This document shows positions 43,850 through 48,994 of a stretch of 64,000 nt of DNA, one piece after another. The translations under genes and the position numbers were made by a program. Origin of the DNA: Escherichia phage vB_EcoP_PE006; the sequence record OQ938541.1; one strand, given 5' to 3'. How positions within the stretch are numbered: the first letter of the stretch is position 1; the number at the start of each line of letters is the position of its first letter. A model generated the notes under the pieces. That model was given only the letters and a program-made list of their open reading frames with translations. It was not told where the DNA came from and did no database searches.

Positions 43850-44005
43850 TCAATGTGTGTGCATCCAATTCAATCCAATCTGACAATCAGATGCCAGAGG
43901 ACATTCCATGTTCAAGTACTCACCAGCTTTCTTAACACAAAGCTCGGTATGTTCTTTGAGTTTATGTACATCATTACGGTTCACTGAGAATTGGCCCTCA
44001 TCCAT
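43850..44005 (-). CDS. DNA polymerase C-terminal fragment (motif C region), separated from the main pol ORF
   Basis: Manual translation MDEGQFSVNRNDVHKLKEHTELCVKKAGEYLNMECPLASDCQIGLNWMHTH; resembles the T7 DNA polymerase C-terminus around the catalytic DE of motif C. An in-frame TAA directly precedes the ATG. Below the track's length cut-off. Confidence 0.5.
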   Translation of the reverse strand: MDEGQFSVNRNDVHKLKEHTELCVKKAGEYLNMECPLASDCQIGLNWMHTH

Positions 44006-44122
44006 TTATGTTATTCCCAAATTACTTCGGGTATCGGACTATATCATAACAGCATAGCTAATTTGCTGTTGTTGGCGCTTCGAGGGTTTCCCTGTTAACC
44101 CCCTACTCCCGCAGGATAGTCT

Positions 44123-44518
44123 CTACACTTTCCACTTTCGAATCCATCTACAAGCGATTCCAAAGCTCACACCAAATCTTTCTGCAAGAGCAACACCAGT
44201 ACATTCATTATTAAGCCAGAACTCTTTAGCAGCATCCTGTCTTTCTCTGTTTCTACCAGTATTTGATTCTATGGCATGTGCACTACCTTCTAATATCTCT
44301 AGATGATCAGTGTTACAACATGCCCTATTCTTGCATTTGTGATTAACTTCGTAGCCGTCAGGAATACTTCCAAACTTCTCTTCCATGACATACCTATGAT
44401 ACATGACCCATTTGCCATTTATCACTTTTCGAAAGTAGCCATCTTTATTTAATTTGTGTGAGATAGGGATGATACATCCTGTGCTAGTTGTTTCTAGCAC
44501 TAGATCTTTCTTAGCCAT
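44123..44518 (-). mobile_element. HNH homing endonuclease gene inserted within the DNA polymerase coding region
   Basis: GYEVNHKCKNRACCNTDHLEILEG is a classic HNH motif; the ORF lies between polymerase motif B and motif C. Confidence 0.75.
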
Positions 44519-44579
44519 ATCACCTCCTAATAGCTTAGCTCGGTATTGCCCTCAACTTAATGGTCGGGTTTCACCGAGT

Positions 44580-46301
44580 TCACCAACTTTTACATGCACA
44601 ATGAAGTTTATGCATATCAATTACCTTAGCACAGCGAACCCCATCTTTCTCAATCCACTTGTTAAGGAACATCATAGCATATTTCATAACAACAGCACCA
44701 GCACATTGCAGGAGAGTGTTAAGTGCTTTATGAACCATAACTTTACCAGTGGCATCTCGTCTCATTGTAATCTTACGACCATCAACACCAATCAAGTACC
44801 CTTGAGCAGCTTTCTCTGTCATACGATCAATGAGGATTGCAATACATGGGTTCTCTGCCAAGAAACGTGCTCGCATCACTGAACCTTCGTCAGCCCCACC
44901 ACCTACAATTGAACCGAGCTTGGCATCACCAGCACCATAGTTGAATGCGTAGATAAATGTCTTAGCGTTGTCACGAGTAGGAAGACCAGCAAGTTTCTGG
45001 TTGTGGGAGTGGATATCACCTTCAAGGAGAATATCACGATACATAATAGCAGAAGCTAAACCACGCTCTGCCAGAGCTTTCTTAGCTGGATTATTCTCTT
45101 CGATTGCTTCAGCAAGCATATCCCTACACTCTTTAATGAGGTAGTGTGCAAGCATACGCAATTCTAATCCAGAACCATCATACCCTAAGAATACTTCTTT
45201 ACCAGCGGGTATGTAATATTTGTAAGCACCTACAGGTTTGTCTTTCTTCCCCGGCTTACCTTTCTCATAAATTACGTTAGTACCTTTTCGTATATAACAA
45301 CCATCAGGAACAACGTTAGTAATAACGAAAGGACGAGAGTGATCATCATCTGAGTTATAGTCAGATTCAAACAAACTGCGACACTCGTGACCAAACAAAC
45401 CACGGGAGGGAATATTAACCACGATACGATGTTTGAATCGAAAAGTCGGCGTAGCGCAGCTGTTAGCTTCTGCCGAAAGTTTACCATCTTCGCGTTCCTT
45501 TGCTATGAGTCCACTAATAAGACCTAGCCTGTGAGCCGCTACAACGCGTCTCTTAAGCAAACTTCCGACACTCCCTAGCTCACCCCCTAACCCTTCTTCA
45601 AGAGTCTCCTCGAGGTTTGTAGGAGCTGTAGGCCACTTGTTTGAGGTAGCTAGTGCTATCTTAATCTCATCAAAAGTGATAGGTCTACGTCGGTTAGGAT
45701 TTAAACCTAAACCAAATACATAAGCCTTCATATAGTTCTTAGTCTTAAACCTAAAATGCTTCTCTAAGAACTTCCTAATATCAGCGTCAACCATCTCGGC
45801 TGTCTGCTTCTGTTTAGCATTACCTCGCATCCAAGCTGAATACCATGCTTGGTATGTTCCATACTTTCGCATATCTTTCTTGATTTCAAAAGTATTCCAA
45901 GGCTTCTTAGATACGTTAAACTCTGGAGGAAGAAAGCCCTCATCCATAAGGGCTTCTTTAACTCGTGCATCTTTCGATGGGTCAAAGTCCACGTATTCAA
46001 CACAGGTGAATGCTCCACCAATGTCTTCTCTCTTAAGACCAACTCTATCACAATAGGCTTGAGGCCACTTCTGTAAAGCTCCAGACTTCTTAAATGGCTT
46101 CATATAAGTAGAGCCATCTAATCTCATCTTAGGTAAGAGAGGAATCAGTTCTTTGTCAATATTAACAATAATCTCTTTAAGGAGGTGAACATACCACCGA
46201 GCATTTCTTCGGTTGAAACTCACTCCGTGCTTCGCTTGCTTAGAGATTATATCAGCGACAGTCATCTCTGTCAAAAATGGGAGAGCGTCCGGGTTGCTCA
46301 C
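44580..46301 (-). CDS. DNA polymerase, family A (T7-like), polymerase domain with motifs A and B
   Basis: Motif A DGSGLELR and motif B RDNAKTFIYAFNYGAGDAKLG closely match T7 gp5 (DASGLELR; RDNAKTFIYGFLYGAGDEKIG); ORF stops before motif C. Confidence 0.85.
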   Translation of the reverse strand: MSNPDALPFLTEMTVADIISKQAKHGVSFNRRNARWYVHLLKEIIVNIDKELIPLLPKMRLDGSTYMKPFKKSGALQKWPQAYCDRVGLKREDIGGAFTCVEYVDFDPSKDARVKEALMDEGFLPPEFNVSKKPWNTFEIKKDMRKYGTYQAWYSAWMRGNAKQKQTAEMVDADIRKFLEKHFRFKTKNYMKAYVFGLGLNPNRRRPITFDEIKIALATSNKWPTAPTNLEETLEEGLGGELGSVGSLLKRRVVAAHRLGLISGLIAKEREDGKLSAEANSCATPTFRFKHRIVVNIPSRGLFGHECRSLFESDYNSDDDHSRPFVITNVVPDGCYIRKGTNVIYEKGKPGKKDKPVGAYKYYIPAGKEVFLGYDGSGLELRMLAHYLIKECRDMLAEAIEENNPAKKALAERGLASAIMYRDILLEGDIHSHNQKLAGLPTRDNAKTFIYAFNYGAGDAKLGSIVGGGADEGSVMRARFLAENPCIAILIDRMTEKAAQGYLIGVDGRKITMRRDATGKVMVHKALNTLLQCAGAVVMKYAMMFLNKWIEKDGVRCAKVIDMHKLHCACKSW

Positions 46302-46317
46302 TTTATACTCCTTTAAA

Positions 46318-46740
46318 TTATTGGTAAATCAAATCCGTAAATGCTTGATTGTCTTCTATCACATCTAACACGGTAGCTTCATAACTGTAAGCCCTAACCG
46401 CCCCGTTAACAACTATCCGAGGAGTAGGTGGAGGTGGTGCATGGTTAGCCCTAGCTTCACGAGGTTGCTCTCGTACTAGATGAGCCACAACCCTTTGGTT
46501 AGCGACTTCTTCTCTTTCTCGAATAGCTCTCTGGATATAAGCCAGCTTCATGCCCCAAGCCTCTTCGAACTCTTGAGGGTGTTTATCACTGATAACCACA
46601 TACTGACGTTCAGGGATACCAGAGCGAATCTCTGATAATAGCTCATGGAACAAATCCAGTTCATGTTCAGTGAGATTCATTTCGATATCATCCCACTTGA
46701 GAACTAAGAAACGGTTTTGGTGTCTAGCTGGTAATGGCAT
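46318..46740 (-). CDS. hypothetical protein (140 aa)
   Basis: ORF with Pro-rich segment; no motif. Confidence 0.45.
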   Translation of the reverse strand: MPLPARHQNRFLVLKWDDIEMNLTEHELDLFHELLSEIRSGIPERQYVVISDKHPQEFEEAWGMKLAYIQRAIREREEVANQRVVAHLVREQPREARANHAPPPPTPRIVVNGAVRAYSYEATVLDVIEDNQAFTDLIYQ

Positions 46741-46903
46741 TCTACTCCACCTCTACTCTAACGTAAGTTCTCTCGCCAACATCATCTTTCCAGACCCATG
46801 CCTTGGCATCTTCTTCAGACTTAAAAGCTTTCACAACGCTGTATCCACCTTCCCATTCATCACCGAACCAGCGCTGTCCTACGTAAACATATTCTTTCAT
46901 TAT

Positions 46904-47188
46904 TTAACCTTTTGGGAATGGCATTAAAGATTCCATAGCAGATTTAATTTCGCTATTGATTCGAGCATCTCGATAAGAGATAAACTTACCTTTGCTATCT
47001 CGTAACATCACATGGGTTCTAGCTGTTACGTGGGGAAGTAATGTAATACTAGTTGGGATAGCGTCAATCCTTACAGAAAATTTGTCAATAGTCTTGCTTT
47101 CACTTAACAGATAAGACCAAGTACGTGGTTTCTGCTCCGGATGATTAGGGTGTGTATCTACGATTTGAACCATAGCTAACTTATTCAT
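46904..47188 (-). CDS. hypothetical protein, paralog of 47190..47441
   Basis: Shares TART.V.LR...GKFISY...L.PFPKG with the adjacent gene. Confidence 0.5.
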   Translation of the reverse strand: MNKLAMVQIVDTHPNHPEQKPRTWSYLLSESKTIDKFSVRIDAIPTSITLLPHVTARTHVMLRDSKGKFISYRDARINSEIKSAMESLMPFPKG

Positions 47189-47189
47189 A

Positions 47190-47441
47190 TTAAACTCCTT
47201 TAGGGAACGGGATGAGGTTTTCTACTGCAACACGGAACTCTTTCTCTACACCTTTATTCTTATAAGAAATGAATTTACCATCAGCCCCACGGAGGATTAC
47301 GTTAGTACGAGCTGTTTTTGGGTTATGACCAATCTGGTTTGCAATGATATTAGCAATGCCGTGATTATTGGTGAATTTCCATTTAACCATACGATTGTTA
47401 GACATTACATCAATGATATTTACAGATTTTACAATAGACAT
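47190..47441 (-). CDS. hypothetical protein, paralog of 46904..47188
   Basis: Tandem duplicate, 1-nt spacing. Confidence 0.5.
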   Translation of the reverse strand: MSIVKSVNIIDVMSNNRMVKWKFTNNHGIANIIANQIGHNPKTARTNVILRGADGKFISYKNKGVEKEFRVAVENLIPFPKGV

Positions 47442-47470
47442 ATTTATTACCTAAGAAGTTTAATTTGGTT

Positions 47471-47504
47471 TATATAAAAGAAAAGGCCACCCATTTGGGT
47501 AGCC
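47471..47504 (-). terminator. rho-independent terminator (minus-strand sense)
   Basis: GGCUACCC / GGGUGGCC stem (one G-U) followed on the minus transcript by UUUUCUUUUAUAUA. Confidence 0.5.
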
Positions 47505-47509
47505 TCATG

Positions 47510-47833
47510 TTACGTTGAGCTTAAAGCTCCTTTTCGCTTAGCAGCACCAGCTGCTTTTCCAGCTCGATCACCACTTTTGCCGCCGTTTGAACGGTTTGAG
47601 CTGACTGATTCAACACGTAAGTTGCTTGACGCATTAGAGCCTCCAGACTTGACAGCTCGTTTGTGTCCAACATCTTTACCTCTGACAGCAGCTTTTCCAT
47701 CGCGCTTTTCAACGATGCGACGTGCACGGTGGCGCTGAGCATCTCCGCTCTTGCTCCCAACGCCTGTTTCACCACGGGCAATTGCGGTACGTCTTTCTTG
47801 TGCATAATCTCTCTTTCCTACATGGTCTGCCAT
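47510..47833 (-). CDS. small basic Gly/Lys/Arg-rich protein (possible nucleic-acid-binding or KGG-repeat-like)
   Basis: 107 aa, AAGGAG RBS, own upstream TAATGTATA motif and downstream terminator; the overlapping 47521..47805 ORF is the alternative reading. Confidence 0.45.
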   Translation of the reverse strand: MADHVGKRDYAQERRTAIARGETGVGSKSGDAQRHRARRIVEKRDGKAAVRGKDVGHKRAVKSGGSNASSNLRVESVSSNRSNGGKSGDRAGKAAGAAKRKGALSST

Positions 47834-47869
47834 TTAGAACTCCTTAATATATCAGTGTACACTAAGGAG

Positions 47870-47878
47870 TATACATTA
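47870..47878 (-). promoter_or_regulatory. TAATGTATA promoter-like motif (minus-strand sense)
   Basis: Reverse complement of tatacatta, 36 nt upstream of the ATG at 47833. Confidence 0.45.
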
Positions 47879-47887
47879 TGGATGCTA

Positions 47888-48136
47888 TTAAAACTCTGCT
47901 AAGTATTTAATATCAGAGGCATATACCTCATCAAAGGAAATAGGCTCTCCGTTGTAAAGAAGTTCTATCTTCAATATACCAGAGCATTTGGTGTCTTTAG
48001 AATCAACTCTGATAGAGAGTTTATCAACTATCTGAGCTTTAATCTCTTCTATTACCAACTCTTGAGTGTTATTCACTCCACCCTCCCGGTGGCACAAAAT
48101 CATCAGGAACGTCAATGATAGTAGGTTCTCCATCAT
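47888..48136 (-). CDS. hypothetical protein (82 aa)
   Basis: ORF only. Confidence 0.35.
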   Translation of the reverse strand: MMENLLSLTFLMILCHREGGVNNTQELVIEEIKAQIVDKLSIRVDSKDTKCSGILKIELLYNGEPISFDEVYASDIKYLAEF

Positions 48137-48254
48137 TCATGCAGGTGTCTTCATTTAACTCTTCACACTCAAAACATGCTCGTTCGATATTTTTGTAGAA
48201 GTCGATGGTTGCTGAACCATCACCACAATCTCGGATAACTAGAGCTACTTTCAC
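48069..48254 (-). CDS. hypothetical acidic protein (61 aa)
   Basis: ORF only; overlaps the previous ORF in another frame. Confidence 0.3.
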   Translation of the reverse strand: MKVALVIRDCGDGSATIDFYKNIERACFECEELNEDTCMNDGEPTIIDVPDDFVPPGGWSE

Positions 48255-48994
48255 TTCTCTTGTCCTTTTTCCATTGCTTTAACAATAGCTTTACAGAAAC
48301 CAGAACGAACAATGTCATCTGATTCGCCGTCTACAATCTCAGCGAACTCATACAGATCATGTTCATCAATAAAGTTAGTAGCCCAAGTAAGACCACTCTC
48401 ACGACCACGCATATCATGCTGGTTAGTATCACCCATGCAGAACAGCTGAGAGGTTTCTCCCAATCGAGTCATGATTGAGAAGGCTTCATCTTTAGTTGTG
48501 TTCTGGAACTCATCAACGATAACGATAGCATCATTGAAAGAACGACCACGGAGATATTCCAGAGGTACGAACTCAATGTTACTGTTACCGAGCTGGCATT
48601 CATAGAACCCTTTACCATATCGCTGAGTAATAACATCAATGATAGGCATCAAATATGGTTCAAACTTCTCACGCATCCCTCCCGGAAGCAACCCAAGAGA
48701 ATTACCCATGCCGACCGAAGGGCGACTCAGGATAATCTTCTGAATCTTACCACTCTTCAGTGCATCGATAACCGTGGAAGTGATTACAAAGGTCTTACCA
48801 CAGCCCGCAGGAGCGTCTGTGAACACAACTTGTTTAGTCTTGATAGCATTGAGCAGTTCAGACTGGAACTGGTTCTGAGGGACTACAGGCTTTGCTAAAA
48901 CCACCTCTTCAAACTCGCGCTTACCCTTACGAGTGACAAGTGCTTCCCGACGAAGGTCTTTCCGTGATTCTTTCCGTGATTGACGACGACTCAT
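48251..48994 (-). CDS. phoH: PhoH-like ATPase
   Basis: Walker A DAPAGCGKT and Walker B VIVDEFQN in the spacing typical of PhoH-family proteins. Confidence 0.75.
   Translation of the reverse strand: MSRRQSRKESRKDLRREALVTRKGKREFEEVVLAKPVVPQNQFQSELLNAIKTKQVVFTDAPAGCGKTFVITSTVIDALKSGKIQKIILSRPSVGMGNSLGLLPGGMREKFEPYLMPIIDVITQRYGKGFYECQLGNSNIEFVPLEYLRGRSFNDAIVIVDEFQNTTKDEAFSIMTRLGETSQLFCMGDTNQHDMRGRESGLTWATNFIDEHDLYEFAEIVDGESDDIVRSGFCKAIVKAMEKGQEK

Follow-up and report, generated by a model that had tools for sequence, protein, structure and literature searches.

Two adjacent genes on the minus strand of Escherichia phage vB_EcoP_PE006 (sequence record OQ938541.1), between positions 46904 and 47441 of the window (the whole analysed stretch of 64,000 nucleotides, nt), are real genes, conserved in 97 phage genomes and under purifying selection. 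The upstream copy (U; 47190-47441, 83 amino acids, ATG start) is the orthologue of phiEco32 gp57, and the downstream copy (D; 46904-47188, 94 amino acids, ATG start) is the orthologue of phiEco32 gp56; the two open reading frames (ORFs) are separated by 1 nt, and both have Shine-Dalgarno sequences at proper spacing. Already known is that the genes are catalogued as hypothetical proteins and grouped by one PHROG. New are the delimitation of the family with its invariant motif, the common predicted fold without known relatives and the division into constant and variable halves, together with the copy-number history, the operon structure and an explanation of the KG tail. The two genes are listed below with the evidence for each, including the ratio of nonsynonymous to synonymous substitution rates (dN/dS, omega) and the predicted local distance difference test score (pLDDT) of the AlphaFold2 model.

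47190..47441, minus strand: U copy (gp57); ORF, PHROG 6814, orthologues, dN/dS 0.34, AlphaFold2 model pLDDT 83.
46904..47188, minus strand: D copy (gp56); ORF, PHROG 6814, orthologues, dN/dS 0.18, AlphaFold2 model pLDDT 78.

The initial annotation had described adjacent genes of 83 and 94 amino acids with a common core, and its coordinates are exact: BLASTP aligns U and D without gaps across TART..GKFISY..PFPKG, with 22/40 identities and 32/40 positives (E 2e-16). In phmmer comparisons with all six-frame ORFs of the window the two proteins find each other at E about 6e-11, no third match falls below E = 1, and the three motifs (TART, GKFISY, PFPKG) are confined to them, so that their similarity is far above chance and the window holds exactly two copies. 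One profile, PHROG 6814, covers both (U: E 5.7e-39, residues 1-83 on profile positions 1-86 of 86; D: E 1.1e-34, residues 1-94 on profile positions 1-85 of 86). The U protein is 99-100% identical to the O18-011 and NJ01 proteins, and orthologues of the D protein are 77-95% identical to it. The proposal of a duplication followed by divergence of one module is supported by the single PHROG, the same predicted topology, the tandem arrangement and the existence of relatives with one or two copies.

Across 46000-48500 the window shows 90-95% nucleotide identity to 97 phages of Escherichia coli and Shigella in the Gordonclarkvirinae (best matches O18-011, 95.4%, and phiEco32, 90.5%). Identity and the gene order PhoH .. 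gp58 - gp57 - gp56 - gp55 - gp54 - DNA polymerase are those of an orthologous pair, and by these marks the pair belongs to a phiEco32-like Kuravirus. The phiEco32 counterparts, phi32_57 and phi32_56, are both annotated hypothetical protein and are flanked by phi32_58 and phi32_55/54, with the DNA polymerase gene phi32_53 next; position, order and length are the same as in the window, amino acid identity is 78% for gp57 and 85% for gp56, and neither phiEco32 gp56/gp57 nor PHROG 6814 differs in kind from the window pair. Literature searches on gp56/gp57 returned no function, structure or partner for any family member.

A profile search of 1.84 billion representative proteins gave 33 matches, about 28 of them true members (clusters), which are single-domain proteins of 79-107 amino acids; about 20 further small phage proteins were gained from the same search. 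Two of its products, a kinesin (FISYRDSKLTRLL) and a propeller-repeat protein (EVFARGxDGKLIH), were rejected as coincidental local hairpin patterns. A word-indexed search of 5.8 billion proteins returned 112 clusters, all on phage-sized contigs (59-100 kb) or fragments; family loci numbered 8 in IMG/VR and 15 in JGI metagenomes. The bacterial and archaeal genomes of 185,579 species held no family copy, which argues against a prophage or cellular origin. With three divergent members as queries, tblastn against 50,697 phage genomes returned only the same 96-97 Gordonclarkvirinae records; at least one family copy is present in all 97 records of the subfamily, and in a few uncultured relatives.

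Alignments of 22-40 members contain a near-invariant stretch, T-A-R-T-N-V-x-(L/I/F)-(R/K)-x-x-x-G-(K/R)-F-(I/V)-S-(Y/F), followed by A-x-x-x-L-x-P-F-P, and in the N-terminal region a conserved V-x-I-x-D plus an aromatic residue. The positions of the conserved elements in the two copies, and of the variable segment of U, are as follows.

47262..47315, minus strand: invariant core of U, T43-Y60 (TARTNVILRGADGKFISY); near-invariant columns, entropy near 0, C-terminal half dN/dS 0.09.
46973..47026, minus strand: invariant core of D, T55-Y72 (TARTHVMLRDSKGKFISY); BLASTP and alignments, model pLDDT about 90, C-terminal half dN/dS 0.13.
47202..47210, minus strand: PFP of U, P78-F79-P80, the conserved domain end family-wide; near-invariant F and P columns.
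46913..46921, minus strand: PFP of D, P90-F91-P92; BLASTP and alignment.
47316..47408, minus strand: hypervariable segment, U residues 12-42 (end of strand 1, strand 2, loop, helix 1); nucleotide identity, entropy, dN/dS.

The U core T43-Y60 is predicted to form a short turn, a strand, a tight turn and a strand, that is, a beta-hairpin. AlphaFold2 models of U (pLDDT 83.4, predicted template modelling score, pTM, 0.69) and D (pLDDT 78.4, pTM 0.72) alike run strand, strand, helix, strand, tight turn, strand, helix, C-terminal tail (beta-beta-alpha-beta-beta-alpha), and from this common order of predicted elements the paralogues share the whole predicted alpha/beta fold, not just the C-terminal core. 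The N-termini, described at first as different, do differ in sequence; they belong to the same predicted fold, and both proteins align end to end with the one PHROG profile. The hidden Markov model and structure-based searches that had been suggested as a check were run and matched no characterised family or solved fold. Neither U nor D had a match in Pfam, NCBIfam or PADLOC at E up to 1; among 38 family members scanned against Pfam, no Pfam family was matched by more than one member; sequence and profile searches of the PDB gave chance matches only (uL2/eS4, E 0.3-1; a beta-trefoil repeat, E 0.056); and fold searches with the predicted models found no relative among solved folds. The statement that no known family was recognised thus holds for function and has to be corrected for the family itself, which exists as PHROG 6814 and as phiEco32 gp56/gp57.

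Lectin-like hairpin repeats of beta-trefoil and beta-propeller proteins (PDB 7zoi; repeat protein P0109) have in common with the core a local V-x-L-R-G-x-(D/N)-G-x-(F/L)-(I/V)-S, but overall fold and context differ, and at E 0.056 against the PDB the match is a chance one at motif level. Since the core resembles the generic hairpin of such repeats, part of its conservation is probably structural; the invariant polar residues T43, R45, T46, N47, S59 and Y60 (gp57 numbering) are candidates for a functional surface. Isoelectric points (pI) in the family range from 4.6 to 10.8 and total charge from -6 to +10; the window proteins U and D have pI 10.4 and 9.8, Kuravirus copies in general are basic (pI 9.8-10.4), many other members are acidic or neutral, and the C-terminal half of family members is mostly slightly net positive.

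Clamp-binding motifs read QL[SD]LF or QLxLx[LF], and the tail of single-stranded DNA-binding proteins (SSBs) is acidic and ends ...DIPF-COOH. The C-terminal PFP as a mimic of either was rejected on pattern by inspection of the alignment: the family tail is [VMI]xx[LM]xPFP plus 1-8 residues, position 1 is not a conserved Q, position 4 is usually K/P, and the tail is neither acidic nor F-terminated. A toxin-antitoxin pair was rejected as well, the products of U and D being paralogues of one predicted fold and many relatives being single-copy.

The minus-strand block reads, in order, TAATGTATA, gp58-like gene, hairpin terminator, gp57, gp56, gp55, gp54 and DNA polymerase. Its signals are these.

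47870..47878, minus strand: TAATGTATA, the consensus of phiEco32 gp36 (phage sigma) middle/late promoters, equal to promoter P58; pattern search.
47483..47506, minus strand: intrinsic-terminator-like hairpin with a 10 bp stem (6 GC pairs) and then a T run, between the gp58-like gene and U; terminator scan.
47195..47201, minus strand: AAAGGAG, at once codons K81-G82-V83 of U and the Shine-Dalgarno sequence of D (ATG 6 nt downstream); read from the sequence.
46908..46912, minus strand: AAAGG, at once codons K93-G94 of D and the Shine-Dalgarno-like sequence of the gp55-like gene (ATG at 46900); read from the sequence.

P58 heads the transcription unit that holds both U and D, and it is tabulated at the corresponding position for six phages, including phiEco32, NJ01 and SU10 (PMC8948821, Table S3). 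In phage SU7 a terminator is annotated at the place that matches the hairpin at 47483-47506; this hairpin probably acts as an attenuator that limits read-through to gp57, gp56 and the DNA polymerase gene. The replication module that holds gp56/gp57 is assigned to the middle gene class (PMC9965538). Gaps between gp57, gp56, gp55 and gp54 are 1-3 nt, and the final codons of each gene contain the ribosome-binding site of the next. The KG codons are AAA GGA G in U and AAA GGT in D; other lineages have EA, TVE or GV as tail residues instead, again encoded by a purine-rich, Shine-Dalgarno-like sequence. Because the KG codons double as the Shine-Dalgarno sequence of the next gene and tails vary elsewhere, the identical PFPKG end reported for the pair is in part a by-product of translational coupling. 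PFP is common to both copies; the 83-amino-acid protein ends PFPKGV, KG is not family-wide, and at family level only PFP is a protein feature.

Pairwise dN/dS was calculated among nine Kuravirus genomes. Whole-gene values are 0.34 for gp57 and 0.18 for gp56, C-terminal halves 0.09 (gp57) and 0.13 (gp56), N-terminal halves 0.20-0.43; for comparison, the DNA polymerase has 0.09 and PhoH 0.03. Nucleotide identity to other kuraviruses falls to 61-89% over codons 1-42 of gp57, against 90-97% in flanking genes; mean column entropy of gp57 is 1.22 bits in the variable segment and 0.27 in the C-terminal half, and the variable segment has dN 0.35, dS 0.81 and omega 0.43. Amino acid identity to the window in most Kuravirus genomes is 68-90% for gp57 and 81-91% for gp56 (99% and 91% in the near-identical NJ01), and within the genus it is 90-99% (mostly 98-99%) for the polymerase, 98-100% for PhoH, 92-98% for gp58 and 79-100% for gp54. 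Pairwise dN/dS is below 1 throughout the nine genomes, and no positive selection is claimed; dS is elevated in the variable segment too, so that relaxed constraint or the shuffling of long-standing alleles would account for the pattern no less well than diversifying selection.

Copy number varies among relatives.

Kuravirus (window, phiEco32, SU10, EK5, XT32, EC.W2-6): 2 copies; U of 83-85 amino acids and D of 91-94 amino acids.
Suseptimavirus-type (SU7, PAS59, Bas88): 2 copies; 83 and 85 amino acids, other subtypes.
KBNP1711: 2 copies; 85 and 92 amino acids, other D subtype.
EP335, Bas92: 1 copy; U only.
Metagenomic relatives: 1 copy; single.

The copy adjoining gp58 is present at every Gordonclarkvirinae locus examined and the second copy is optional, D being absent from some kuraviruses, Bas92 and EP335. 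The D slot holds three different subtypes in three genera, and the U subtype is common to Kuravirus and Nieuwekanaalvirus. Identity between copies of the same genome is 31-45%, no higher than between copies taken from distant phages. Low identity within genomes and the three D subtypes together suggest either that the duplication is old or that the second slot has been refilled by exchange, and that D has been lost repeatedly.

Proteins of about 85 residues that carry no catalytic signature and pair an invariant, candidate surface motif with a variable opposite part, as U and D do, are most simply taken as binding modules, and it is reasonable to infer that they are non-enzymatic. The constant face would dock on one conserved partner; the variable face would adapt to something that differs between hosts or phages, or would simply be unconstrained. 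U would supply the basic function and D an optional, diversified second specificity. As to what is bound, we tentatively favour, as a good possibility rather than an expectation, host interference or counter-defence in support of phage DNA replication, like the small T7 genes 5.3-5.9, over a role in the replisome. Fast evolution, copy-number variation, subtype swapping, the variable island and a non-conserved charge point this way: varying copy number with three D subtypes is the pattern of accessory host-interaction genes, and a net charge that varies so widely (pI 4.6-10.8) speaks against general binding of nucleic acids. The T7 analogy and the unexplained defence resistance of these phages point the same way. 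Small class II proteins of T7 that flank the polymerase gene (5.3, 5.5, 5.7, 5.9) bind host H-NS, sigma-S RNA polymerase and RecBCD. They are like the present family in being small and non-enzymatic, in size class, in their place in the replication module and in co-expression with the polymerase; the analogy is one of working mode only, no sequence or fold similarity having been detected, and the T7 proteins are mutually unrelated whereas U and D are paralogous and carry an invariant motif. Gordonclarkvirinae are reported to withstand almost every defence system tested, by no known mechanism (PMC11990801).

Several observations weigh against host interference. At least one copy in all 97 genomes, at a fixed site by the polymerase even in distant relatives, suits a core function better than an anti-defence gene of the usual kind, and gp56/gp57 are middle, not early, genes. 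Overall dN/dS is never above 1 and dS is raised too, so that recombination or relaxed constraint explains the variability equally; the AlphaFold2 models of U and D are only moderately confident (pLDDT 78-83). In raw plating data of the BASEL collection, phages with one copy (Bas89, Bas92) do not differ from those with two (Bas90, Bas91) on six restriction-modification systems or on the abortive-infection systems tested, and efficiency of plating on Fun/Z (Bas89 about 1, Bas90 about 0.01, Bas91 about 0.2, Bas92 0.05-0.2) does not track the second copy; D is thus not required for those phenotypes.

Part of the same evidence bears on the main rival, a replisome accessory factor, which would bind the family A polymerase, another replication protein or primer-template/single-stranded DNA through the invariant hairpin and serve there as a subunit for processivity, loading or bridging; this is possible, though it would come as something of a surprise. 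The family stands in strict synteny directly upstream of the polymerase gene at all Gordonclarkvirinae loci examined and in divergent metagenomic relatives, translational coupling extends as far as the polymerase gene, none of the 97 subfamily genomes lacks the family, the C-terminal halves retain basic, aromatic and hydroxyl side chains at R45, R/K51, K/R56, Y60, T43, T46 and S59 and are mostly net positive, and possible remote relatives occupy the same polymerase-side slot of Grimontviridae. Yet the family evolves much faster than the polymerase, which shows no changes to match the varying copy number and the swapping of D subtypes, and total charge in the family spans -6 to +10; Bruynoghevirus and Lahexavirus share the polymerase and the gp58-like gene but hold unrelated small genes in the slot. 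Fold searches returned nothing resembling oligonucleotide/oligosaccharide-binding (OB)-fold SSBs, clamps, thioredoxin or other known accessory factors, and the predicted topology is not the five-stranded beta-barrel of OB-fold SSBs. The same charge range bears on a small sequence-specific DNA- or RNA-binding regulator, whose basic beta-hairpin would read sites and control middle/late expression or the initiation of replication, and which we consider decidedly unlikely: the basic Kuravirus copies (pI 9.8-10.4), a hairpin bearing conserved R/K/T/N/S/Y residues and a small size that could allow oligomerisation would suit it, but acidic or neutral members are numerous, no repeated motif resembling an operator was noticed near the genes (no search was aimed at one), and the literature consulted (PMC12276001) names gp36 and gp79 as the regulators of phiEco32 transcription.

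Charge of the opposite sign would be expected of a DNA mimic that inhibits a host DNA-repair enzyme or nuclease, as Ugi or phi29 p56 do with uracil-DNA glycosylase. Such a role would fit the modified or uracil-containing phage DNA that has been proposed, but is very improbable here: DNA mimics are strongly acidic and the window proteins have pI 10.4 and 9.8, neither the acidic surface nor a structural similarity to uracil-DNA glycosylase inhibitors (Ugi of PBS2, p56 of phi29) was found, and the phage encodes the thymidylate synthase ThyX, so that thymine-free DNA is not indicated. Equally hard to credit are decaying duplicates or selfish passengers of a recombination-prone slot beside the HNH-like gp58 gene. 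Absence of D from some kuraviruses and EP335 and the variable island in which the genes lie would agree with dispensable filler of this sort; the strong purifying selection on the C-terminal halves (omega 0.09-0.13), an 18-residue motif almost unchanged across members only 31-45% identical overall and the retention of at least one copy in every subfamily genome disagree with it. A bolder reading, which is unlikely, takes the family for a new small fold that grips a single conserved target with its invariant hairpin. The target would be a replication, repair or immune protein of E. coli or else the phage's own exonuclease-less polymerase; the family would then be a missing determinant of how Gordonclarkvirinae replicate in the face of almost all tested defence systems, and the second, subtype-swapping copy would widen the target range.

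The neighbours of the pair are listed below.

47510..47833, minus strand: gp58-like gene, 107 amino acids, very basic, conserved upstream neighbour; PHROG 4590, E 1e-50 to neighbours of distant members.
46742-46900, minus strand: gp55-like gene, 52 amino acids, translationally coupled; ORF, PHROG and context.
46318-46740, minus strand: gp54-like gene, 140 amino acids, translationally coupled; ORF, PHROG and context.
44580..46301, minus strand: family A DNA polymerase gene, 5' exon, conserved downstream anchor; ORF, annotation, synteny.

Three metagenomic relatives have, in this order, a gp58-like gene, a family member that is 33-42% identical to the window copies in the family alignment, gp54-like or other small genes and a DNA polymerase gene. 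The gp58-like gene occurs in 252 phage records (Pseudomonas Bruynoghevirus, Aeromonas Lahexavirus, Proteus, Salmonella, Vibrio), always near the polymerase gene; the space between the two is taken in Bruynoghevirus, Lahexavirus and other clades by other, unrelated small genes. By gene content, the slot between gp58 and the polymerase gene is a variable island, of which the PHROG 6814 family is the occupant in Gordonclarkvirinae and a few relatives. The whole stretch from PhoH/gp58 to the polymerase, at 46318-48254 of the window and in the compared loci L025-L028, is a plasticity island; kuraviruses that are otherwise 90-99% identical differ in whether they carry the ORFs of 47888-48254, the gp55-like gene and the gp56-like gene. 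Two overlapping minus-strand ORFs, 48069-48254 (61 amino acids) and 47888-48136 (82 amino acids), lie where phiEco32 annotates the single phi32_59 (333 nt), and Bas92 is annotated with two overlapping genes at this place. The gp54-like proteins and their relatives of 237-269 amino acids had no Pfam or PDB match.

In Grimontviridae, proteins of 88 amino acids (PKM.Lu.22.1 WHS68315.1; Proteus phage P59 gp074), located at L028 4194-4460 and L026 5463-5729, are similar in size to the family and occupy the same gp58-polymerase slot. Their C-termini (RTNVVVRDLNTGRFTKW, KTNIMVRDYVSNKLIKW; RTNVVVRD..G(R)F.KW-like) resemble the family hairpin, and hhalign gave probabilities of 74% (WHS68315.1) and 19% (P59 gp074) against the family, over 21 and 15 columns. 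They stop right after the hairpin and differ from the family in having neither the second helix nor PFP; they may be truncated remote relatives, homology not being established.

The gp58-like protein has its own phage-sigma promoter and terminator and is far more conserved and widespread than gp56/57. Its alignment contains an invariant V-(D/G)-H ... GGSN ... NL ... N ... GG resembling an HNH (His-Me finger) motif, although Pfam detects none. In several GenBank records it or its neighbour is named 'autotransporter adhesin', a label that on sequence grounds is wrong; in OQ540978, OR757435, PP445229, MN715356 and others the gp57 homologue or its neighbour is named 'autotransporter adhesin' or 'Cas8 protein', with no sequence support.

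Downstream, phiEco32 annotation gives a family A DNA polymerase that has neither exonuclease domain. The polymerase gene of the window is interrupted (43850-46301, minus strand): ORF 44580-46301 ends '...VIDMH' within Pol A motif C and is followed by an HNH homing-endonuclease-like ORF at 44123-44518; a full-length but sub-threshold Rfam group I intron match lies at 44015-44202 (28.7 bits, E 3e-4, gathering score 50); and the HDE motif of the polymerase would be completed by the initial 'MDEGQFSV' of a short ORF at 43850-44005. Related phages have split or intact polymerase genes and adjoining endonuclease genes.

As an uncharacterised phage family, PHROG 6814 is real but unremarkable: orphan paralogues of this small size abound in phages, and a specialist would be unsurprised by it. 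The E. coli phages of the Gordonclarkvirinae, among them phiEco32, SU10 and ES17, are common, have a broad host range and serve in therapy studies, yet the group is understudied. If gp56 and gp57 are ordinary accessory proteins, their annotation is still cleaned up and a variable island by the polymerase gene is documented. They form a core lineage-specific family that has no fold relative, is co-expressed with the polymerase and combines an invariant motif of 18 residues with a hypervariable second face, and would be well-defined candidates for pull-down and deletion experiments, for which K-12-infecting members exist with one copy (Bas89, Bas92) and with two (Bas90, Bas91).

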